Shown here: positions 1 through 11,198 of the stretch, one piece after another
How the letters are laid out: each line of letters begins with the position of its first letter
How positions within the stretch are numbered: the stretch's first letter is position 1
Source of the DNA: Promethearchaeota archaeon
GTDB lineage: Archaea; Asgardarchaeota; Lokiarchaeia; Sigyniarchaeales; Promethearchaeaceae
Length of the DNA: 11,198 bases
Assembly (NCBI GenBank): GCA_016933055.1
Contig: JAFGBS010000025.1
Coordinates: 1 to 11,198, forward strand
Reading direction: 5' to 3'
Notes under the pieces: generated by a model
Told to the model about the DNA's origin: nothing
Seen by the model: the letters and a program-made list of their open reading frames with translations, nothing else
The model's database searches: none
Program-made: the position numbers and the translations under genes

Positions 1-24
1 ATTCTTTGGGAGAAGGGAGAAGAC

Positions 25-175
25 CGTACAGTACAAAGGAAAAAAAGGGAAAATTTTACCGATTAGCTTCGGTAAAAAAAGATTAATCCGCCAAAACGCG
101 TCCCGATTTTTGAGGGAATTGTGTAGATTTTTTGACTAGCATCATAGAGTGTTAGCGTTATCACCCGACAAATGA
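25..175 (+). repeat. Left degenerate terminal inverted repeat
   Basis: 60-112 aligns ungapped to the reverse complement of 11085-11137 at 42/53 identities. Further collinear matches: CGTACAGTA 25-33 = rc 11187-11195 (9/9); 144-160 vs rc 11050-11067 (14/18, one gap); GACAAATGA 167-175 = rc 11034-11042 (9/9). Confidence 0.85.
54..77. repeat. 9-6-9 perfect palindrome TTTTACCGA-ttagct-TCGGTAAAA inside the left terminal repeat
   Basis: Arms 54-62 and 69-77 are perfectly complementary. The arm core TTACCGA is the same as in the iteron copies at 360-368 and 368-376. Confidence 0.7.
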
Positions 176-266
176 GTAGTTTCCGCCCAATTCGATATTT
201 GTGGGCTTTTTAGATGAAATGTCGGTATTGTCCCGTGTTTTATCTAAGGCATCTTTGTGAAATCAA

Positions 267-566
267 AATTACCCGAAATTACCGGTGAAAGTAATTTCTA
301 CGCTAAGGAGAAGTCCCAAATACCTAAGAAGATGTTCAGTTGAGTAAGATGAAGTTAAAAATTACCGAATTACCGAAATTACCGCCAAAATCAAGTATTT
401 ATTTTACAATAATAATACTGTGTAATTAGATTTCTATAGGAACGAATGGTAATTTGGTAATTATTAGAGATTATAGATATTAGTAATCAGTAGATATTTA
501 GAATGGAGTAAAAGATTACTGTTCGATTGGTAATTCTATGGTAATTGATGGTAATTACTTACCATC
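267..566. promoter_or_regulatory. Iteron-like repeat array, candidate replication origin
   Basis: AATTACC starts at 267, 277, 360, 368 and 377; its inverse GGTAATT starts at 448, 456, 529, 540 and 550. The centre (~391-447) is AT-rich. Perfect 8-bp inverted pairs lie at 275-282/291-298 and 547-554/559-566. No ORF covers the region. Confidence 0.65.
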
Positions 567-601
567 TTCATAGTTACGCAGTGGGTTCAGTAAGTTTTCC
601 T

Positions 602-1051
602 CTATTCTTCTTTTAATTCCTTCATTCGTTTATTAATCAAATAACTCAATTCTTCCTATTCTTCAATTTTCTCGGATTTAATCTTTTGAGAAATCGAATT
701 TTTCGAGTCATTTATTAATGCAACACTAATTTGATTACTGACTTGAGTTTTGAATTCTTCTAATTTTTTATCAGCCAGAATATACGAGATTTTTCCATCT
801 CTGAGGAAGAACACACGGTCTGCTATAATTTTGAAATCAGGATCATGAGTTACAACGATGATGGTCATGGAAAGATGATCCTTGTGTAAGTCAGTAATCA
901 AGTTCAGAATTTTTTCTTTGTTTTCTGAATCCAATTCACCGGTAGGTTCATCAGATAATAAAACTTCTGGTTCTTTCACTGCAACTCGGATAAGTGCAAA
1001 TCTTTGTTGATCTCCACCTGAAAGTTGGTCTGGATAATGGTGCAAACGATT
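602..1051 (-). pseudogene. 5'-truncated ABC transporter ATP-binding protein (LolD/MacB-like), C-terminal half only
   Basis: It has the ABC signature LSGGDQQR, Walker B/D-loop VLLSDEPTGELD and H-loop VVTHD, but no Walker A or Q-loop. The frame is closed upstream by TGA after ESNRLINRL. After the TAG at 656-658 the same frame continues EELSYLINKRMKELKEE to a TAG at 602-604. Confidence 0.85.
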
Positions 1052-1080
1052 TATTAAACGATTGGATTCTCAAAAACAAG

Positions 1081-1084
1081 GGAG
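1081..1084 (+). promoter_or_regulatory. Shine-Dalgarno-like GGAG for ATG 1094
   Basis: GGAG lies 9 nt upstream of the ATG at 1094. Confidence 0.4.
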
Positions 1085-1093
1085 TACATAAAT

Positions 1094-1439
1094 ATGCTTA
1101 AATCAAAAATAACTCCTGATTTAATCAAAGAATTTCAAAGAGGAGGGAAAGCATATTTTTTTGACTGATTTAATAAATGAAGGATTTTGTGACAATATTA
1201 GTTCCGTATGGGTATATCCCTCATGTAGAACCGAAGAAGGCAATACGAAGGGGTGTGTGGTATGTTTCCATCCCCCGTCATCATTATTAGGCGAAATTAC
1301 GAACAAAGCAGTCCATGATAACGAGAAATTACGAGCCATAAATCGTGTCGGAAATCCCTCTATTACTTGGGAACCATTTCGACTATATATATCAGACTTA
1401 AACTCCTCAGAAGTATACTTGAAAATACATCAGTTCTAA
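1094..1439 (+). pseudogene. Small hypothetical gene (~114 aa) split by a frameshift in a T7 homopolymer
   Basis: ATG 1094 reads MLKSKITPDLIKEFQRGGKAYFFD*. Removing one T from the run at 1156-1162 fuses it to the called 1161-1439 ORF (…KAYFLTDLINEGFCDN…). No family recognised. Confidence 0.5.
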
Positions 1440-1584
1440 AGTTAGATATAAAAAATTGGCTGGATTATAATGCTTCGTTAACGTATTGGCTTTTTCACCA
1501 GCAGAATCTTAGGACTGAAGGCAGATTATAGAAAAAAGAAGTGTTTGTGGTCATACATTTATGCCTTTTTAAACAAATATTCAG

Positions 1585-1596
1585 AAAAAATGAAAA
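1585..1596 (-). terminator. Possible archaeal-type oligo-T terminator of the giant gene
   Basis: The minus strand reads TTTTCATTTTTT shortly after the stop codon at 1607-1609. Confidence 0.3.
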
Positions 1597-1606
1597 TTTT
1601 TTTATT

Positions 1607-4600
1607 TTAGTAGTCATCTCTTATTCGGTCTTGCCAATCAACTTCAGGATATTTTTTTAGATATTTCCATCGAACTGCATTTCCTAACGCATAGAAACCT
1701 CTATAAAAAGGTGTCAATCCTCCCAGTAATGCTGTGGCTACATATGCCATTCCTAAAGCAAATTCATCTCTGGAACAATAGAGAAAACCGGCACCCATCC
1801 AACCATACGGTAATCTACTAAGACTTATCCACATGAAACCGAATCCTCGTAATGAGAAACAATTACCCGATATTATCATCCAATTATACCACAAAGGATT
1901 AAGTATTCTTGAAAATTTCCCTTCAGACTCCAAGAAGAAATGATATATATTCAACAGTCTTAAAAATGTTCCGACCGAAAACTCGTGGAGTAAATTAACA
2001 TCACCATCAAACAAATTTCGATATCTTGCATTATATATCAACCCAATATTAGGTACACCTACAACCATAACAGCTGTCAATAAAGTGAAATACACTGAGG
2101 AATAGGTTTGCGGAACTTTATTTGGTGCTCTTAGATATCCACTAGCTTGTCCGTCTAAGAAGAAAGAGTCATCCATAGTATTATCTCTTCTACACTCGTA
2201 ACACACCAACGGAAAAATTTGTGCGTCTTTGCAATCAACTACACCGACATGGTTTCCACCATATCCCGCAGTCCATAGTGCAGATACTTCTAATGGTCGT
2301 AATATTTGCCATGAGTTCACCCACCATCCATAATCACGAGAGAATTCACTAGATCCGTGAGCTTCTACCCACATAGACACCAAATCGTTCTTATATATAA
2401 CTCCACCATACATGACATCTTGACAAGCGTCACGAATAATTTCTGTTATAATACTTTTAGTATAGGGTTCTGTAGTTCCCACAACATAGTAATTATCTAT
2501 AAATATCGAATTTGTAACCCCCGTTAGACCTTGGACGAACCAAGTATCACGATAGTGATTCCACATAAATTGTGGTTGTCCTAAACGATTCGCCATTGTT
2601 TCATAATCTGAATCTGCATATAATGAAATATGCCAATATCTCTCTTCATACGTTAATGATTGACTTATGGTTTGAGGATTAATTTGAATCGGTGTATAAA
2701 TTGCAGAATTATTATTACATGCAGTATATTCTGATTCTAACGATCCAAGTGTTGTATTATAGATACCCACAGTAATATAATAATAAGCTGTGGTGTTAAA
2801 TGCTTGAACCATTGTACTATTTTCAACCGTTGTTTCTATTGGTTTTAGACCGATCGTAGAATTTATAGGTGATTCACTTGAATATATACGATATACTAAT
2901 ACATTTTCGGACATATTATACCATGTATTACTAATAAATGTGCTATTCATATCGTTCCATGTAAAGTTTAACTTGCCGAAACATTGTTCATACGTTTCCC
3001 ATTCATAGGTCGCGTAGGTCCTGAGTCCATAAATTGCTGTATAATTATCTTCACCTGTAACATTTCCGGCATATCCTCTAATGCGTATTCTAAAATCATC
3101 CCAATCATCAAGACTGACGTTCCAATTTGATGTGTCTATGGTAAGATTGTGCCATGTTAAAGTGGTATTTCCGATACCGGAAATCAAATCGACGTATTCA
3201 TGCCACGTTTCACCGTCATATAACATACATTCTAAACTTCCGGTGTTGTTACCTTCCTTACCATAAACTTCTACCGTAATATTCATTATTGGGTATGTAG
3301 TGTTCAAATTGGTGTCAACATCTTGTAATTCGAACGTTTGTTCATCACCATCCGTGGTATCAGTATATATATATGTCGAATTGTCCAAAAATCCTACCTC
3401 ATTAATTGTCATATATTTATCCAATTCGCCGTAATACTCATATCCTACCTTAATTCTCACAGAATACACAAACACAGGATGAAAGTTTTTCTGTATCCAT
3501 AATTCAAAATAATCATCGAATTCATCAATTGTTTTATTTTGATCGAATTGATCGGTCCACTGACTATCTTCATTTGTTAATGTATATGATTCGCAAACAG
3601 TTTCACCTTCATCTCTTAGAAAATAATCCATGCTTGTGTCAAAATTTGATTTTGTCCCATGATCGTTGAATCGTATATATGGTGTAATTCTTGATGAGGT
3701 GATTCCATTTTCATATCCAATCCATGACATTGTGACATTCTTCACAATAGCAGATCCATTATTCAACCCTTGAATTTCATCAAAAGACAATTCAAGATAA
3801 CAAGAATCATACCAATACGGACTTGCATATTCATATATATAATCGGTTGTGTCATTCCAATCATCAATTACTGTATAATGTCCACTATTATTCGTGGCAC
3901 CGTTATTATAAATCCCATCATAAAAATCCCATTCTCGATTATATGATAGATAAGACATATACGAACTGGTTGGATACATCCATTCAGTTTCACCGGATAC
4001 CCATTCTTCACTTGTTACTGTTTTCCAATCAGTTGGAGTATCATAACTATAATCTATTTCAGAAACATATACCTCTGACAAATAACAAGTGTATCCGTCA
4101 TCTCTCGTAGATTCATATTGCACTAACAAATCATCATTGAAATCTTCAATCGTGAGTGATCCAAAATCCGCACTTGTAAATTCATAAGTTTTAGTGACAG
4201 AGGTTCCGGAAGCTCCTCCCATAATAGTTTTCCAATCAGTCCAAGATCCCCCTATATAAACTTTTAATCTCAAAGGATGATTCGCGCTATATATCGCAAA
4301 TTTCGTTGTTATTGTGAAACTATCAAGATCATAGGAAGAATCTATCGTGGAATTCTCAAAACTATATTCTTCAATACTAGCAACTGAACCAGAATTATCC
4401 ATTATGAACCCAGTTGATTGTGTCAAACTAGTATAATGATTAATTGAATCTCCTCCGTTTTGTAACACCCAATCATTCGGACTCGTATCTCCATCGACAT
4501 GATATAGCGTTGTATCAGTGCCACTTCCGGAATAGAATTCTTCACCAGATACATATTTATATCCCGTGTTTGTGACTCCTCTTAACACTTCATAATCGAT

Positions 4601-7369
4601 CTCCTCATATTGAAAATCTGTTACCTCTGGAAGACCAAAGTCTTTCAATATTGTTTCAGAATTTGAAATTAAAGACCATTTATTATTGAATTTGCATGTG
4701 ACTGCATAATGATAATATCCTTCCATTAAATTAAAAGTGTCAATATTATGAGCTATATCACCAAGATCATATACTTCTTCTGTCACTGGATCAAGCATTT
4801 CTGGTGTATATGAATCAATATAAATTTTATAATCACATCCGGTATAATCCGTAGTTATATATGTATGTGTGATTTGGTGATGATTTGTATCAACTATTAC
4901 ATTACTTGACAATATCTCATCATCGATATAAAACGAAGCATTATTTGTATATGTTGTAGAGTTGTAATATTCGAAATCGTATACCACAGTGAGTAGGTAC
5001 CATTGATTTTCATTAACACCGCTATTCAAAGTTGTATATCCGTGAGTATAATCGTACGACGTCCAATTATAGTTTTTTGTTCCAAATCCTAAAAGCTTCG
5101 TGGTACCATTATATATGTCTATAAAATTTTCAGTTGAATTATCCGTTGTCATAAACCAAGTTTGAACAAAAGAACGATTGGTTTCTATTGACTGATTCAC
5201 ATTCATTACCCAATTACCAGTATTCGAATTATCAAATATTTCATACACCTTTTTATGATCTTCGTGACTCGAAATCACTTTCTGAGTACCAGAAGTGCTA
5301 TTTATTATATCAAATTCTTCTGGTTTAGATCCTAATTCATCTCGATAAAATGTGTGGCGTCCTTTATAATTTCCGTAGTCAAATTCGTCAATAAATCCAG
5401 AATAAACATTACTAGTTGATTCTTCAAACATAAAAGCTTTATTTATATTGTCGACTGTTATATCCTCGCTATAAAGATAATATCTCCAAACTTCTGGTTG
5501 TTCATATTCGGTAATATCATCAACCACATAATAATGGTGAGTATTGTTTTCCCATGATATATCAATCGAATCGACATACGCGTGGTAATTATATCGTGAA
5601 GATCCAGAACGAACTCCGATTATGTTGATATTGGTGATTGAGTTTGCCAAATTATCTCCAGTTTCATATAGAGTATCATTAACATAGAAACTAACAGATT
5701 GATCGCTTTCAAATATGATTTTAAAAACATACCAGGTATTATCTGAAGGTGTTCCAATACCACTATGATATTCATATCCACTACTATCATAAGATCGGAA
5801 ATTCCCAGATTCCACACCAAATTCGGCTGCCAACGTGGTTCCATCTAATATACGAATATAGACCGCTTTATCATTATCTGGTACTATTCCCAACATTTCA
5901 ACAGTTCCGCTATCGGTTTCAATACAACCATGACTAGCTTGTACTGATCCACCAGAGGATGTGTCATATATATCCATTAGATTATTATGTCCATCATAAC
6001 TTGAAATAATACTTGTTGTCCCATACGTCTCGGTTTCATCCCAATCCGAAATTGAAGAATCAATTGTGTTATTCCAAAAGGTATATACTCCTTGATAATG
6101 CCCTCTTCCTTCTTCCCATTCAGCATCTATTTCTAAATCCATACCATCTTGTGTTAGTTCAATAATAGGTGCTGATAATGGATTGATAATAATTTCTATA
6201 CTCTCATAATTAGAAATCTCACTTGATCCCGTCCCGTTTACCGCTGTCACGGCATAATAATATGTATCATTCGATATTATTGTTTGATCTATATATTCAG
6301 TTTCTTCAGTTTCCCATATTTTTGTCGCTGAAGTAACACTGGTGATTTCTGAAAGACTTCTATATACCTTATAATAAGTGGCACCGTCCTCATCACTCCA
6401 ATTTAAAGATACTTCTCCCTCTACACCTGTTTCTTCAAGATCATCTAAGGTAGGAGGATCTGGTGGAAAATATTCGATATCATCGTCCGCTGGTACATAT
6501 ATTGAACTCCTTGGAATACTACTCTCGTCACTGTATTTGCTTAGAAGATTACCCATCTTCAGATCATAATCAGATTTTAAAGTATCCGCATTATTTACTT
6601 CTTCCCATGCTCTTTCAACACCCACAGTCTCATGTTCAGAAAACGTAGGATGAAAATCTATATATGTAGCATCAACTAATTTTCCCCCAAAATACAAAGC
6701 ATAAGGATCTGATTTTTTATCACCACTGTTTTTTAGATCATCTATTCCCATATTATATATTTCATACATTCTGATTTTATTATTAGCGTCACAAAACTCT
6801 AATACAGTATAGGTTAAACGTATTTCAATTGTCGCGCTCGTACCTCTAATAGAATCATAACATGATATATCGTAGTAAAACAGATCACCCGATTCAGTGA
6901 ATTTTCTTTCGCTAGACACTATAGGAATCACATACAATTGCCAACCATATCCGATAAAAACATCAAATTCAAACTCATTTAAACTATGTTGTCGCATATG
7001 TATTCGGATATCTGTTAAAGGTGATTTTCTATAATCCATATTTGCAAAATGTCTTAACATTTCGTGATTAGCTTTAGTCCCCTCATATAAAGATGGATTG
7101 TCCGACTCCCATATAATTTCACCATTAGGTCGATTAAGTGTTTCTGGTTCTCGAAACACATCAACATTTATTCTATTTTTATCACTTGAACCTCCAACAT
7201 AATGAAGAGTAACTTCTCCACTCTGAATTGATTGTGCCAAAAGCGATAATGTTTTTGTATCTGTTTTAACTGTAGTTGGTATAAAAAAAGTTAATACACC
7301 ACCAGTCGATAACAACATTATTCCTATGAAAAAAACCGAACTTATTTTCAGTTTTGTCTTATTTAACAT
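1607..7369 (-). CDS. 1920-aa secreted or surface glycoprotein: signal peptide/N-terminal TM, FN3-like domains, two concanavalin/LamG-like repeats, three further beta-sandwich repeats, C-terminal clan-CD-like cysteine peptidase and hydrophobic tail
   Basis: Uninterrupted 5763-bp frame with a basic then hydrophobic N-terminus. A canonical FN3 lies at aa ~302-393 (VSLNW…YYKVYRS…YYYAVTAVN…SEISN). There are about 36 N-x-S/T sequons. SMWVEAHGS (H1671) and AQIFPLVC (C1723) mark the peptidase. SD GAGGT is present upstream. Confidence 0.95.
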   Translation of the reverse strand: MLNKTKLKISSVFFIGIMLLSTGGVLTFFIPTTVKTDTKTLSLLAQSIQSGEVTLHYVGGSSDKNRINVDVFREPETLNRPNGEIIWESDNPSLYEGTKANHEMLRHFANMDYRKSPLTDIRIHMRQHSLNEFEFDVFIGYGWQLYVIPIVSSERKFTESGDLFYYDISCYDSIRGTSATIEIRLTYTVLEFCDANNKIRMYEIYNMGIDDLKNSGDKKSDPYALYFGGKLVDATYIDFHPTFSEHETVGVERAWEEVNNADTLKSDYDLKMGNLLSKYSDESSIPRSSIYVPADDDIEYFPPDPPTLDDLEETGVEGEVSLNWSDEDGATYYKVYRSLSEITSVTSATKIWETEETEYIDQTIISNDTYYYAVTAVNGTGSSEISNYESIEIIINPLSAPIIELTQDGMDLEIDAEWEEGRGHYQGVYTFWNNTIDSSISDWDETETYGTTSIISSYDGHNNLMDIYDTSSGGSVQASHGCIETDSGTVEMLGIVPDNDKAVYIRILDGTTLAAEFGVESGNFRSYDSSGYEYHSGIGTPSDNTWYVFKIIFESDQSVSFYVNDTLYETGDNLANSITNINIIGVRSGSSRYNYHAYVDSIDISWENNTHHYYVVDDITEYEQPEVWRYYLYSEDITVDNINKAFMFEESTSNVYSGFIDEFDYGNYKGRHTFYRDELGSKPEEFDIINSTSGTQKVISSHEDHKKVYEIFDNSNTGNWVMNVNQSIETNRSFVQTWFMTTDNSTENFIDIYNGTTKLLGFGTKNYNWTSYDYTHGYTTLNSGVNENQWYLLTVVYDFEYYNSTTYTNNASFYIDDEILSSNVIVDTNHHQITHTYITTDYTGCDYKIYIDSYTPEMLDPVTEEVYDLGDIAHNIDTFNLMEGYYHYAVTCKFNNKWSLISNSETILKDFGLPEVTDFQYEEIDYEVLRGVTNTGYKYVSGEEFYSGSGTDTTLYHVDGDTSPNDWVLQNGGDSINHYTSLTQSTGFIMDNSGSVASIEEYSFENSTIDSSYDLDSFTITTKFAIYSANHPLRLKVYIGGSWTDWKTIMGGASGTSVTKTYEFTSADFGSLTIEDFNDDLLVQYESTRDDGYTCYLSEVYVSEIDYSYDTPTDWKTVTSEEWVSGETEWMYPTSSYMSYLSYNREWDFYDGIYNNGATNNSGHYTVIDDWNDTTDYIYEYASPYWYDSCYLELSFDEIQGLNNGSAIVKNVTMSWIGYENGITSSRITPYIRFNDHGTKSNFDTSMDYFLRDEGETVCESYTLTNEDSQWTDQFDQNKTIDEFDDYFELWIQKNFHPVFVYSVRIKVGYEYYGELDKYMTINEVGFLDNSTYIYTDTTDGDEQTFELQDVDTNLNTTYPIMNITVEVYGKEGNNTGSLECMLYDGETWHEYVDLISGIGNTTLTWHNLTIDTSNWNVSLDDWDDFRIRIRGYAGNVTGEDNYTAIYGLRTYATYEWETYEQCFGKLNFTWNDMNSTFISNTWYNMSENVLVYRIYSSESPINSTIGLKPIETTVENSTMVQAFNTTAYYYITVGIYNTTLGSLESEYTACNNNSAIYTPIQINPQTISQSLTYEERYWHISLYADSDYETMANRLGQPQFMWNHYRDTWFVQGLTGVTNSIFIDNYYVVGTTEPYTKSIITEIIRDACQDVMYGGVIYKNDLVSMWVEAHGSSEFSRDYGWWVNSWQILRPLEVSALWTAGYGGNHVGVVDCKDAQIFPLVCYECRRDNTMDDSFFLDGQASGYLRAPNKVPQTYSSVYFTLLTAVMVVGVPNIGLIYNARYRNLFDGDVNLLHEFSVGTFLRLLNIYHFFLESEGKFSRILNPLWYNWMIISGNCFSLRGFGFMWISLSRLPYGWMGAGFLYCSRDEFALGMAYVATALLGGLTPFYRGFYALGNAVRWKYLKKYPEVDWQDRIRDDY

Positions 7370-7375
7370 TTTGTA

Positions 7376-7380
7376 ACCTC
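7376..7380 (-). promoter_or_regulatory. Shine-Dalgarno GAGGT of the giant gene
   Basis: The minus strand reads GAGGT-tacaaa-ATG (6-nt spacer). Confidence 0.6.
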
Positions 7381-7401
7381 ATTTTTTTTTACATACACTG
7401 T

Positions 7402-7469
7402 ATTTTGAGGAAACTGTATTCTTGGTAATCTTGATTTATTTCCCTCAAAATGTGAATGCATAATGCATT
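7402..7469. promoter_or_regulatory. Operator-like inverted repeats upstream of the giant gene
   Basis: ATTTTGAGG 7402-7410 pairs with CCTCAAAAT 7443-7451. AATGCA-taa-TGCATT lies at 7455-7469. Confidence 0.35.
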
Positions 7470-7764
7470 TCACTATTAAATATGAAAAAATAGAAAATTT
7501 ATTGTGATATATTGTGTCAAATATTGAGCCAAATTGAAATGGACAAAAATATGATTTTATTGTAAAATACCGACTAAAATCTTAATTCTCACATATGTTT
7601 CAAGTAACTTGATATGTAATGAAGCGTCCCATACTTATTTCCTCGATATATTTTTAATGAATTTAATTAGCCGTGAGATTTATTTCAATCATATTAAAAT
7701 CGATTCTTACTTAAGTGGGTAAGAATGTGTGACATTTCAAGAATATTTGTATCTCAGTACGAGA

Positions 7765-7770
7765 TTTAAA
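7765..7770 (+). promoter_or_regulatory. TATA-like box for a possibly leaderless transcript of ORF 7794
   Basis: TTTAAA lies at -29 to -24 relative to ATG 7794, the usual archaeal TATA spacing. The region is AT-rich, so chance is plausible. Confidence 0.3.
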
Positions 7771-7793
7771 TTGAAGTACTATTTAGTAAAATT

Positions 7794-8378
7794 ATGAGTT
7801 TTCATGTCATAAGAACCATCTTTTTTCCCACTGTTCGTTTCATTTTAGGCGTAAATACAACATCTAATAAATTCGGCCTTAAAAAGGCAGATTCGGAAAA
7901 CTGGGTAACATTGAAAGCAGAGTTTAACTTTCACGGTCCTAGACCAGGAGGGAGTTGGGTGTATCGACCCACTGCCGACATGGTTACGGAGATTGGGGAG
8001 TCTCCCGAGCAAGCCGAAGAACGGAGAAGAAGAATTTCATCATCTGTATTTAATAATAAATTAAATACAGAATATAAGACATTTGATGAATTGAAGGTCT
8101 GGTTTATCGATGAGGAGTTAAAGAATTTCATAAAGCGAGTAACAAGTAAGATATCCTTGGAATTTATAGGGGAGTTGTGGAAAGTGTGTGTGAATACGTG
8201 GGACGGTCTGGAATTAATTACGAGAAGAAATAGAGATGATCCCCGATTATACACCGGGGATATTCCCCACGATTATACACATGCACGAGAAGAGATTTGC
8301 ACTGTAATTCATAAGTTAGAACCAAAACTTAATCCATCGTGCATCCAATCACGCGTATCGGAATTATTATCTGATTAG
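7794..8378 (+). CDS. Hypothetical protein, 194 aa
   Basis: Long ORF for this AT content, ATG start, globular-like composition, not overlapped by a better gene. No motif recognised. Confidence 0.65.
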   Translation: MSFHVIRTIFFPTVRFILGVNTTSNKFGLKKADSENWVTLKAEFNFHGPRPGGSWVYRPTADMVTEIGESPEQAEERRRRISSSVFNNKLNTEYKTFDELKVWFIDEELKNFIKRVTSKISLEFIGELWKVCVNTWDGLELITRRNRDDPRLYTGDIPHDYTHAREEICTVIHKLEPKLNPSCIQSRVSELLSD

Positions 8379-8674
8379 CTCGCTCTCTCTTCTAGAAAAT
8401 CTGATCATTAACAGAATTTAAAAAATTATAATTAAAAATTGAACTTTATAAATTGAATTTGTCCAATTAAAAATCCTCCTATGAGAGAAAAAAGAGAAAT
8501 CATTAAGGCATGTGATTTTAGTTTCGCCCACAGATTTCCCACTCAACAATTCTGTTATTAAATACTTACTTGAGAAATTTAACTATTTTCCTATTCTGAG
8601 GATTATGGACAAATTTTCGATCTTCATCAGTACGCATCACCAGCTAAAAGAAGGAATGTAATAATATTATCCGA

Positions 8675-10411
8675 TCACAAAAAATGCTTTTTAGGGATTA
8701 GAATAGCGTTTTTTGTTATTCCATCTATGCTTATTTTATCTTGTGGTGTTTTTGGTATATCAGTCCACACTCTTTGAAGTTGCTTAATGAAATCGTTGAA
8801 TGATGGCTGGAGATTCAAACGTTTTTTTAGATCAATGTAATTATCACTTGTATATACTGCTGCATCATCGATGGATTTAACCATAGTTCTCGATTTATAC
8901 TTCTTTTTCACTTTGATTTCACTTTGGATCCAATAAGGTCGTTCGAGTCGATCGTTTGTTCTTCCTTCTCTGAGTTGCTCTATTAAGGTTGTCAACGTTT
9001 CCTCAAATCCCAATGTTAAAGATAGTTGGATAAGGTGTTTCAATCGAGAAATTGCTTGATCATCAAATAGTATTTTTCCAAATGCTTTTTTGGTTAATTC
9101 CGCACCGAACATGAAATACTTAAAGATCGTATCCCGACGAGGATCAGAAGGAAACGCATCTTCTTGAGAATTGAATAACGCAAGAACTTCCTTTTCTGTC
9201 CAGCCTTTGGTAAATTCAATTACACACTTACCCAAATATCCATAGGGAATACCCTTAATTTTCTGAAATCTTTTGGTATCAGTAGGTTGGGAGTCAAAGA
9301 GAAAATGAACTCCACGATCATTCATCCCTTGATCATTGAACATTTCAGGTCGTGTATTGCTTGTATATATAATTGGAGCAAGCCATTGTTCATCTTGAAG
9401 TAATTTCTGAGTTTTACTCAATTTTTGAACATTAACGTCATTCGTATGATAGGATTTCAATGTTCCCCACATACCTTTTGGGATATCATTCACGTCATCA
9501 ATTCCGATCGGCAATGTAGATACACTAACGTAATTATCAAATCGTGCTTCACTGCTAATATTCCTGCCAGTTACCGTGAAGCTATTCCATAAAGTTTTCA
9601 CCATAATTTCCATCATTTGGGTTTTACCAGAACCCGGGGGACCGATGAAACTTATCCATGGATTTAGAAAATTATGCTTTTTAAGTAAATGCAAGAAGGG
9701 TGAAGCGATAGCGACTCCAATAAATAGTTTCTTATTGGGAATTGTTATGGAATCCATTAGGAGATCGATGTATTTTGCTCCTTCAATTGAATCTACCGTT
9801 AATTCGTTCATCTCTTCAATTTGTTTTATATATTTTTCTTGAATGCTATCTTTTATTTTATCAAATACCTTCTCTGGAGGAAGATTCCATCCATTTTGTC
9901 CAAATCCGCAGATTGTTACTACATTTTCAGTGGGAATTTCTGCTTTATCAAGATATCGATGGATTAATACACTAAAATATCGAGGTTTTTCAATACAAGA
10001 GTGTTTTCTGACGTTTTCCTCCATTTCTTTGAATGTTTTACCTATATAAGAAATACCGTTCAACATATAATTGAGTAAGATCTCAAGATTTGGTCTGATA
10101 ATTTTTTTATTTATATTAAACGATTCCCAACCCCAGTAACGTTTCCCATCTTGATCATATATACCCGATTCAAGATTTAATTCAACATACCGAGATCTTT
10201 CTCTATTTGTATAGAAACGAACGTTAGTGCTTTTAAAAATCTGGTTAGAAATTACTAATTTAGAACGGAAATTTTTGACTCTAGCTTTTTTCTTGCTTTG
10301 TCCTGTAAAATGAGGAATTTCTTCGTTTCTGAAAATTTCATTCTCTTCTTTCGAGTAGGGATTAGAAACAGCTTTATTTTCTACTATTTATGGTGTGACC
10401 GCCGAATTCAT
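8675..10411 (-). CDS. DUF927/Cch-like (or D5/SF3-like) AAA+ replicative helicase; probable full frame starts at ATG 10411 with an in-frame TAA at 10388-10390
   Basis: Walker A ISFIGPPGSGKT, Walker B LPIGIDDV, sensor-I region QWLAPIIYTSN, Arg-finger GMNDR and a wHTH-like C-terminus. Manual translation shows the frame open from 10066 to 10387, and in frame with ATG 10411 beyond one TAA. Confidence 0.8.
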
Positions 10412-10433
10412 ATTGTTTTTGTAAATTTGTATT

Positions 10434-10625
10434 TCATAATGATCTAAAACATATAAGTCCTTCCTCCAAATACGATATTAATTTAAAATAATCGTTAGAC
10501 TTGGATCTCCGAAGATTTAGACTGTCATAACAATTGTCGCTGTTTAAATTAGAATGTCGGAATGTTTTTACGAGCAGTAGATTTATAAATTCCTGTACAT
10601 TATTAATAAATGAGTGATTCTTCAC
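10434..10625 (-). CDS. Small hypothetical protein, possibly a winged-helix DNA-binding protein or remnant
   Basis: GTG start. It is co-oriented with the helicase and ends 22 nt before ATG 10411. The C-terminal DSLNLRRSKSNDYFKLISYLEEGLI loosely resembles the wHTH recognition helix plus GLI. Confidence 0.3.
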   Translation of the reverse strand: MKNHSFINNVQEFINLLLVKTFRHSNLNSDNCYDSLNLRRSKSNDYFKLISYLEEGLICFRSL

Positions 10626-10863
10626 TTATTTAGGGTTGACCGCCCTTTGCTCCCTTAAACATGGGAGCGCCTAATTTTTCTAATTGTATTGTCCGTGTAA
10701 TCGTTATCACTTTTTGTTAGCACTTTTTCTTGGAAAATACTGTTATCAAAAGGGTACTGTGCGATGTTCGATGGATGAAGGTAAAAACAATTCCTATTCA
10801 CAACTATTTTTAACACGAAAACCTAAGGAAATCAGGGAAATCTCCAGCAGATGAAAGATGACA

Positions 10864-10905
10864 TAGTGAATTCACTAGTGAGTTCACTAGTGAACTCACT
10901 AGTGA
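10864..10905. repeat. 3.5 tandem copies of a 12-bp unit forming a 34-bp perfect palindrome
   Basis: Units TAGTGAATTCAC / TAGTGAGTTCAC / TAGTGAACTCAC / TAGTGA. 10872-10905 (TCACTAGTGAGTTCACTAGTGAACTCACTAGTGA) equals its own reverse complement. Confidence 0.95.
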
Positions 10906-11033
10906 TTACGATAAAGATATGTTGAAAGAAATAAGGTAAAAGTCCTGACAAATCATAAAAGGAAAACAACATTTGATCTGATAGCCCGATTATCCACCAA
11001 ATTTCCCCTATCATTACCCTTACCACTGCCCTA

Positions 11034-11195
11034 TCATTTGTCATAAATTTAACTGATAGCAGTCTATTTTTTGCTAAAATCAAGCAAGAAACGGGACGCG
11101 ATTTGGCGGTCTAATCTACATTTGCTGAACCTAATCGCTTTTTTTTTATTTTTTTTTCATACGACAGATGTATAAAGGGGTAACTATACTGTACG
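11034..11195 (-). repeat. Right degenerate terminal inverted repeat
   Basis: Reverse-complement counterpart of 25-175, with the same four collinear blocks and indels between them. Confidence 0.85.
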
Positions 11196-11198
11196 CGG

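Follow-up and report, generated by a model that had tools for sequence, protein, structure and literature searches.

Cch, encoded by the staphylococcal cassette chromosome mec (SCCmec), and Rep, encoded by the Staphylococcus aureus pathogenicity island (SaPI) SaPIbov1, are both self-loading initiator-helicases of the MCM-like AAA+ type, carried by mobile islands of staphylococci. Plasmids integrate by homologous recombination at shared insertion sequence (IS) copies, e.g. in the formation of high-frequency-of-recombination (Hfr) strains by the F plasmid. Both kinds of system bear on the stretch of DNA analysed here (the window), which is an entire contig of 11,198 bp (JAFGBS010000025.1, here C34) from a Promethearchaeota genome assembly (G000; 3.76 Mb, 36 contigs, 91% complete, carrying a full-length archaeal small-subunit ribosomal RNA). 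With moderate confidence, we read C34 as a plasmid-type Asgard element of ~11.25 kb that has an initiator of the Cch/SaPI-Rep kind, that was made linear in assembly within a miniature inverted-repeat transposable element (MITE) of its host, and that is probably integrated or decaying.

Small circular and integrating mobile genetic elements (MGEs) are already known from Asgard archaea; those described by Valentin-Alvarado et al. (2024; PMC11529989) measure 2.5-40 kb, are all circular, and have integrated and free forms that coexist. C34 resembles these elements in its size class, its inferred circular form, its Asgard host, its mostly hypothetical genes and possibly the occurrence of both forms. 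They carry tyrosine integrases with short att motifs, whereas C34 has no recombinase, its only candidate recombination site is a MITE shared with the chromosome, and half of its coding capacity is taken up by a giant surface gene.

The C34 helicase resembles SCCmec Cch and SaPIbov1 Rep in a whole-length, three-domain alignment, in its ATPase motifs, in being borne by a mobile element, and in having short repeat arrays nearby; it differs from them in its low identity (13-14%), in lacking DUF927, in its Asgard host and in a stop at codon 8. SCCmec-type elements combine Cch with Ccr large serine recombinases and an attB in rlmH, while C34 has neither a Ccr serine recombinase, nor a SaPI integrase, nor a pri gene, and its repeats do not lie immediately 3' of the helicase gene as those of the SaPI ori lie relative to rep. 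Aloposons and casposons, like SCCmec, are comparable as mobile elements with large cargo genes or Cch-type helicases, but no homologue of TnsB/TnsC, Cas1, PolB or Ccr is found on C34. Searches of all its open reading frames (ORFs) of at least 60 aa with Pfam and PHROGs gave no match to integrase or recombinase, transposase, polymerase, primase, capsid, terminal-protein or transfer genes. A first-pass annotation, made from the letters alone, had already listed most of these absences, and they hold for C34; its placement of an MGE-type replicon in an Asgard archaeon is likewise kept, in view of the archaeal ribosomal RNA and the helicase fold.

Contig ends: halves of a dispersed repeat and arms of a split hairpin

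The outermost features of the window are as follows.

1-87, plus strand: right half of the MITE, with ~2 nt of flank at its end; the reverse complement of the last 87 nt of contig C31 is identical
88-105, plus strand: right arm of a hairpin whose GC-rich 18-bp stem is interrupted by the MITE; a T5 run comes next
11092-11109, minus strand: left hairpin arm, complementary to 88-105 at 17/18 positions
11112-11198, plus strand: left half of the MITE, identical to the reverse complement of the first 87 nt of contig C15

The first-pass annotation had proposed a new class of element bounded by terminal inverted repeats (TIRs), based on inverted homologous ends. An inverted match does exist (39-112 versus 11085-11158; 74 nt, 74% complementary), but it does not mark element-specific termini. 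It has two sources, one being the TIRs within a repeat of ~225 bp that is dispersed in the genome, the other the 18-nt inverted pair of hairpin arms. A BLAST comparison with G000 gave 12 further matches, at 77-100% identity, for each of the stretches 1-87 and 11112-11198, such that the repeat occupies at least 13 places in the assembly; at least nine copies are full, and others lie at contig ends. A complete copy starts with the 87-nt piece from the right end of the window, continues with a middle of ~55 bp and closes with the 87-nt piece from the left end. The left end of C34 is thus the right half of the repeat and the right end of C34 is the left half, both oriented directly, and these ends look inverted because the repeat itself is palindromic.

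The repeat is non-coding and has imperfect TIRs of ~24 bp. Most copies have TA at both borders, a 2-nt repeat that is too short to prove a target-site duplication. In these properties, in its length, in its number of places and in its palindromic A-run/T-run or hairpin targets, it resembles Stowaway/IS630-Tc1-type MITEs, and differs from them in that the G000 assembly holds no autonomous transposase partner with matching ends. A BLASTn search with the terminal repeats, suggested in the first-pass annotation as a way of locating autonomous partners, returned the dispersed MITE and neither a transposase-bearing partner nor a longer element with the same ends in that assembly. No copy matched an Rfam family.

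Exactly 87 nt are common to nine contig-end pairs in the assembly, including C34/C15 and C34/C31, which is the signature of a de Bruijn graph with k = 87. The stretches that C34 shares with C15 and with C31 start precisely at the MITE border. The ends of C34 are graph break points one k-mer (87 nt) within the repeat, and not termini of an element. The proposal of a new TIR-bounded class therefore fails, the end repeat being dispersed genome-wide and unrelated to the genes of C34, which we read as a plasmid-type element and not as a new class of transposon. This removes a false lead, the apparent class being an effect of linearising a repeat-broken contig, and it provides a worked example of how such an artefact can be spotted, from shared ends of k-mer length, a dispersed repeat and a split hairpin.

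The two 18-nt arms were found nowhere else in G000, being restricted to C34. When the flanks are joined with a single TA and the MITE is removed, they form a hairpin with an 18-bp stem and the loop TCTAAT, followed by the T5 run, which folds at -39 kcal/mol (z = -7.5). One hairpin could not come to be divided between unrelated loci, so the two ends of C34 must formerly have been neighbours with a single MITE between them, placed at the TA of the loop. We infer a circle of ~11.25 kb that either still exists or did so until recently, and the small linear replicon offered earlier as one form of the element is disfavoured, both ends rebuilding one hairpin across a single MITE.

Only the MITE halves of C34, C15 and C31 are 100% identical, other copies being 77-94% identical, and the flanks at C15 and C31 have the A-run/T-run character seen at other chromosomal copies. 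These relations suggest the following history. A TA-targeting MITE of ~225 bp, from the host repeat family, would have inserted into the hairpin loop of the element; with an identical copy on the chromosome, the k = 87 assembly would have broken inside the repeat and linearised the circle there, giving rise to the apparent TIRs. The simplest arrangement would place a single MITE copy on the circle and a second on the chromosome. Recombination between these two identical copies could then integrate the element with no need for a recombinase of its own. The assembly graph node has two edges in and two out, and fits a free circle plus a chromosome equally as well as a cointegrate. That C34 is integrated between C15 and C31 by homologous recombination from MITE to MITE seems somewhat more likely than that it is still a circle. 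If so, the shared MITE ties the element to the host chromosome and offers a possible route of recombinase-free integration.

MITE-like copies were placed at C2, C9, C15, C16, C17, C23, C24, C31 and C36 of G000, and at C28, C51, C55 and C136 of a second genome, G002, which belongs to the same genus as the host and is 76% complete. Most often a copy has an A-run on one side and a T-run on the other, or else occupies the loop of a hairpin. The MITE starts or ends at least eight contigs, and so is one source of the fragmentation of the assembly.

The predicted initiator-helicase and the putative replication-control region

A helicase gene and two repeat arrays could together constitute a replication module.

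8675-10411, minus strand: Cch/SaPI-Rep-like AAA+ initiator-helicase gene, predicted from the model described below; 578 codons from ATG 10411, with TAA in frame at codon 8 (10388-10390)
267-383, minus strand: left half of a heptamer array, with five GGTAATT; present in C34 alone
384-447: AT-rich spacer between the inverted heptamer sets
448-556, plus strand: right half of the heptamer array, with five GGTAATT; inside a block (426-1051) that is 88% identical to contig C27 of G002
10690-11111: non-coding module, 86.5% identical overall to contig C51 of G002 (L028:6449-6849); ends in the left hairpin arm
10864-10905: palindromic 12-mer TAGTGAAYTCAC in 3.5 tandem copies; only 1.5 copies in G002

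With the stop-to-stop helicase frame as query, an exhaustive HMMER search brought up 145 homologues, of which the best is 33% identical. The homologues align from 25-50 residues upstream of ATG 10066, the start as called, which would thus lose part of a conserved N-terminal domain. A frameshifted N-terminus was considered and rejected, as ATG 10411 in frame plus the TAA at codon 8 accounts for the missing part. An AlphaFold2 (AF2) model based on a 23-sequence alignment reached a predicted local distance difference test score (pLDDT) of 82, and its top Foldseek matches were SCCmec Cch (5DGK) and SaPIbov1 Rep (8TCH). In VIA-align, 437 residues of the model (within 56-570) aligned with 5DGK_B (Z 22.4, root-mean-square deviation 4.9) and 427 with 8TCH_B (Z 18.0), while MCM proteins aligned over the ATPase core only (residues ~175-465; Z ~14). 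In the model the whole three-domain architecture is matched, i.e. an N-terminal beta-rich domain, an MCM-like AAA+ core and a C-terminal domain of winged-helix type. Among the 23 homologues, D297 and R358 are invariant and G254/K255 and N344 nearly so; by our own reading of the alignment, these columns would be Walker A (G254/K255), Walker B (D297), sensor 1 (N344) and the arginine finger (R358). As modelled, the protein is a full-length homologue of SCCmec Cch and SaPI Rep and a predicted helicase. The homologues, the model and the structural matches confirm the earlier designation of an MGE-type AAA+ helicase.

At the sequence level the family is without annotation. Pfam assigned no family and no DUF927, with matches to RNA_helicase and AAA below threshold only; the helicase profile found no match among PDB sequences, and tblastn found none in plasmid and phage collections. 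The ~145 metagenomic members thus represent an uncharacterised helicase family of Cch/SaPI-Rep architecture that has no Pfam family, and that occurs in genomes of the Loki order (11 of the 154 examined had a match) and in one Hodarchaeota metagenome-assembled genome (MAG). Fusions to DnaG-type primase, Toprim or MCM-OB domains are common among relatives. In the Hodarchaeota MAG (GCA_048886965.1; L015:1466-5018), a family member of 753 aa, which gives a weak winged-helix match of MCM8 type, adjoins a tyrosine integrase and the core genes FTR and SIR2; this locus is an integrated element in another Asgard lineage. In G005, a complete genome of the same family as the host, a 1272-aa DnaG-primase/Toprim fusion of the helicase family (L031:8148-11966) lies beside GMP synthase, and a 217-aa serine resolvase (L031:16400-17053) follows ~4.4 kb downstream. 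This locus pairs a Cch-like helicase with a serine recombinase on an Asgard chromosome.

The TAA at codon 8 could be a nonsense mutation, a consensus error, or a stop that is bypassed by re-initiation. The 463-aa helicase call recurs on an independent Logan contig, implying that the gene is interrupted there in the same way. Together with a 5'-truncated ABC ATPase gene, described below, the stop suggests that the element is probably in early decay.

The heptamer GGTAATT occurs 13 times in the window versus 2.4 expected, a count reached in 0/200 shuffles, and the 12-mer matches seven times versus 0.24 expected. The symmetric iteron array of the first-pass annotation is thus statistically borne out, with five minus-strand and five plus-strand heptamers around an AT-rich spacer that we consider a candidate unwinding region, and with the whole a putative origin. 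If the map is drawn as a circle, a single non-coding region of ~1.5 kb upstream of the helicase gene takes in the two arrays, the hairpin and the MITE, an arrangement that would fit a replication-control region and putative origin. The replication module would then comprise a self-loading AAA+ initiator-helicase and this region. A segment of 124 bp in contig C100 of G002 (L055:8604-8727) is 78% identical to window 433-556; it is intergenic and lies just downstream of a 132-aa ORF. The heptamer-bearing segment may be a small dispersed repeat.

A related locus in the same genus and the competing explanations

The non-coding module of ~420 bp is ~92% identical between C34 and G002 by our own estimate when a 24-nt indel is set aside, while the core-gene DNA of G000 and G002 is 66-75% identical. 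It is single-copy in each genome and genus-restricted. An 83-aa ORF that overlaps it is only 71% identical at the protein level, so that the module is probably non-coding.

Around the module, contig C51 of G002 is ordered as follows: the N-terminal part of an ABC ATPase at the contig edge, an FtsX-type permease of 957 aa, a 173-aa ORF, a 605-aa helicase, the 420-bp module, the left hairpin arm and a complete MITE, beyond which lie a beta-propeller gene and then core genes syntenic with C2 of G000. The layout of C34 is thus kept, with proteins that are unrelated or very distant; the helicases are 30% identical. As these related elements adjoin different chromosomal neighbourhoods, they lie in different places, and one of them appears to have recombined at the MITE. 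In the G002 contig, chromosomal sequence replaces the right hairpin arm exactly at the MITE, which would be the expected outcome of MITE-mediated recombination with the chromosome. This configuration, with the element on one side of a MITE and the chromosome on the other, resembles plasmid integration at shared IS or MITE copies, as do the identical repeats on C34 and its chromosome and a graph that fits a cointegrate or separate forms; the resemblance is incomplete in G002, and for C34 the route is a proposal. Apart from MITE copies, G002 holds no DNA homologue of the C15-start, C31-end or C2:44.5-kb flanks, and so supplied no empty site. In G005, the MFS gene corresponding to the C31 end and the 222-aa gene corresponding to the C15 start are ~400 kb apart.

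Several observations weigh against a self-replicating, MITE-integrated plasmid. (i) G002, at 76% completeness, yielded no right hairpin arm beside a MITE, which would be the junction reciprocal to that of the C51 contig. (ii) In G002 the right half-array is preserved and follows an intact ABC ATPase gene, in a region that is helicase-free for ~5-9 kb on either side; its occurrence there without a nearby helicase weakens its reading as the origin of the C34 helicase. (iii) The helicases are 30% identical versus ~92% for the module, which makes the module unlikely to be a helicase-specific origin. (iv) A free plasmid whose initiator has a stop at codon 8 should not replicate. (v) With regard to MGE status, no spacer-like match to C34 from clustered regularly interspaced short palindromic repeats (CRISPR) was found in G000, and the short C34 matches in four genomes of the order have no flanking repeats. 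(vi) The topology, copy number and junctions of C34 are all deduced from assembled sequence.

Of the competing explanations, the one that survives best is a freely replicating circular plasmid of ~11.25 kb, in which the TAA would be erroneous, polymorphic or bypassed, and the identical chromosomal MITE would reflect a recent transposition between plasmid and chromosome. We hold this to be possible, if doubtful. The split hairpin that joins the ends of C34, the graph node that accommodates a circle plus a chromosomal copy, and the intact 1920-codon ORF would all suit it, as would composition, C34 being a tetranucleotide outlier (98th percentile among 11-kb chunks of G000), which also speaks for the preferred reading. 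It is countered by the independent Logan contig with its identical 463-aa helicase call, by the truncation of the ABC gene, and by the binning of C34 together with the chromosome.

A helper-dependent, satellite-like family is a further alternative, which we consider unlikely. Here the 420-bp module plus the MITE would be a cis site (for attachment, packaging or transfer) read by a helper in trans, with helicase and cargo exchanged freely. The first-pass annotation had offered a non-autonomous element mobilised in trans, which may apply. The single-copy, genus-limited module, kept beside helicases of only 30% identity on an element with no recombinase, capsid or transfer genes, speaks for such a family, and a Logan contig (k = 31) that breaks at ~10740, inside the module, would fit the presence of further copies in the sample. 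Yet no helper was found, no viral or conjugative genes lie near the G002 copy, and the module, seen in two genomes only, could instead be a recently exchanged recombination tract or a promoter or regulatory region. Perhaps the most far-reaching version of these ideas, and in our view a rather unlikely one, is a recombinase-less Asgard family that uses the shared host MITE to enter and leave chromosomes, keeps the ~420-bp cis module near-invariant across species, and swaps its Cch-like initiator and giant surface cargo. If true, such a family would be a helper- or host-dependent 'surface-gene shuttle'.

C34 could also be non-mobile, i.e. a fast-evolving chromosomal surface-protein/ABC transporter locus that holds a dead helicase gene between two MITE insertions. 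The gene order with ABC ATPase and FtsX-type permease in G002, the decay of the C34 genes, and the chromosomal position of the 426-1051 block in G002 all lend themselves to this explanation. We find it quite improbable, since the flanking contexts are unlike between the two species, the helicases are 30% identical versus ~70% for core DNA, the helicase family is elsewhere found beside integrases or resolvases, and a single split hairpin needs ends that were once adjacent. Finally, the discrete TIR-bounded, transposon-like or linear element of the first-pass annotation, with the inverted ends as its own termini, would account for the C34-unique 18-nt inverted arms that lie 87 nt from each end and for movement with no other mobility gene to explain it, but is barely credible given that each outer 87-nt stretch is one half of a dispersed MITE, the two being directly oriented and not TIRs specific to the element, that the ends are k-mer break points, that the arms make one hairpin whose loop TA is the MITE target, that Pfam and PHROGs detected no transposase, Cas1, PolB or terminal-protein gene on C34, and that the G002 copy retains one arm only.

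With the plasmid-type reading preferred, C34 adds one more entry to the still-short list of Asgard mobile elements. Its residual interest lies in the unannotated helicase family, in the highly conserved 420-bp module, in a possible MITE route of integration that needs no recombinase, and in a putative orphan surface protein of 1920 aa.

The gene for a giant putative surface protein and other cargo

Four substantial ORFs were called on C34: 1607-7369 (minus strand, 1920 aa), 7794-8378 (plus strand, 194 aa), 8675-10066 (minus strand, helicase-like, as called) and 656-1045 (minus strand, a 129-aa ABC-ATPase piece). The features other than the helicase gene are:

1607-7369, minus strand: giant orphan gene, 1920 aa, reading frame intact
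656-1057, minus strand: 3' fragment of an ABC ATPase gene of MacB/LolD type, with signature motif, Walker B and H-loop, and without the Walker A half
7794-8378, plus strand: orphan protein of 194 aa, convergent with the helicase gene; one metagenomic homologue, 57% identical

The cargo of the element would thus be a giant orphan membrane-anchored surface protein plus an ABC ATPase remnant. That one gene of 5.8 kb makes up half the unit was correctly noted in the first-pass annotation, which took its product to be a giant adhesin-protease. A surface protein is plausible. The 1920-aa protein has an N-terminal transmembrane segment or signal anchor, a Thr/Ser/Tyr/Asp/Asn-rich ectodomain of ~1700 aa with 38 N-x-S/T sequons, one weak fn3-like module (aa ~310-400) and a hydrophobic C-terminus that is helical in a low-confidence prediction; the best reading of these features is a predicted membrane-anchored surface glycoprotein. 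The protease part is unsupported and we drop the label: Pfam searches of nine sub-segments gave no peptidase match at E <= 1, and a single-sequence AF2 model of aa 1490-1920 was unusable (pLDDT 31). By our unaided reading, the spacing of His-Gly and Cys in the protein may recall clan CD.

Among 5.8 billion proteins, the giant protein has no homologue except itself, and its C-terminal 361 aa have none in the 154 genomes of the order. It found no match in Atlas or PADLOC and bears no similarity to the 957-aa permease that lies within the G002 locus. The only detectable relative is part of a 702-aa chromosomal frame in G000 (G000:C17:67108-67482), which is 32% identical to aa 265-391, the segment that gives the weak fn3-like match. 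The 194-aa protein found no match in Pfam, PHROG or PADLOC, scored at chance level in Atlas and is unlike the 173-aa ORF of G002. Rfam and tRNA scans of the window also gave no match.

The missing N-terminal half of the ABC gene was not found elsewhere in G000. The 550 bp between the fragment and the giant-gene stop (1058-1606) have no detected coding remnant and no match elsewhere, and are presumably the scar of a recombination that removed the 5' half of the gene. The surrounding block (426-1051) matches L054:8955-9580 of G002:C27 at 88% identity; there the ABC gene is intact (a 323-aa ORF) with flanks syntenic with C22 of G000. Between the fragment and this intact gene, codon differences comprise 16 synonymous and 17 non-synonymous changes.

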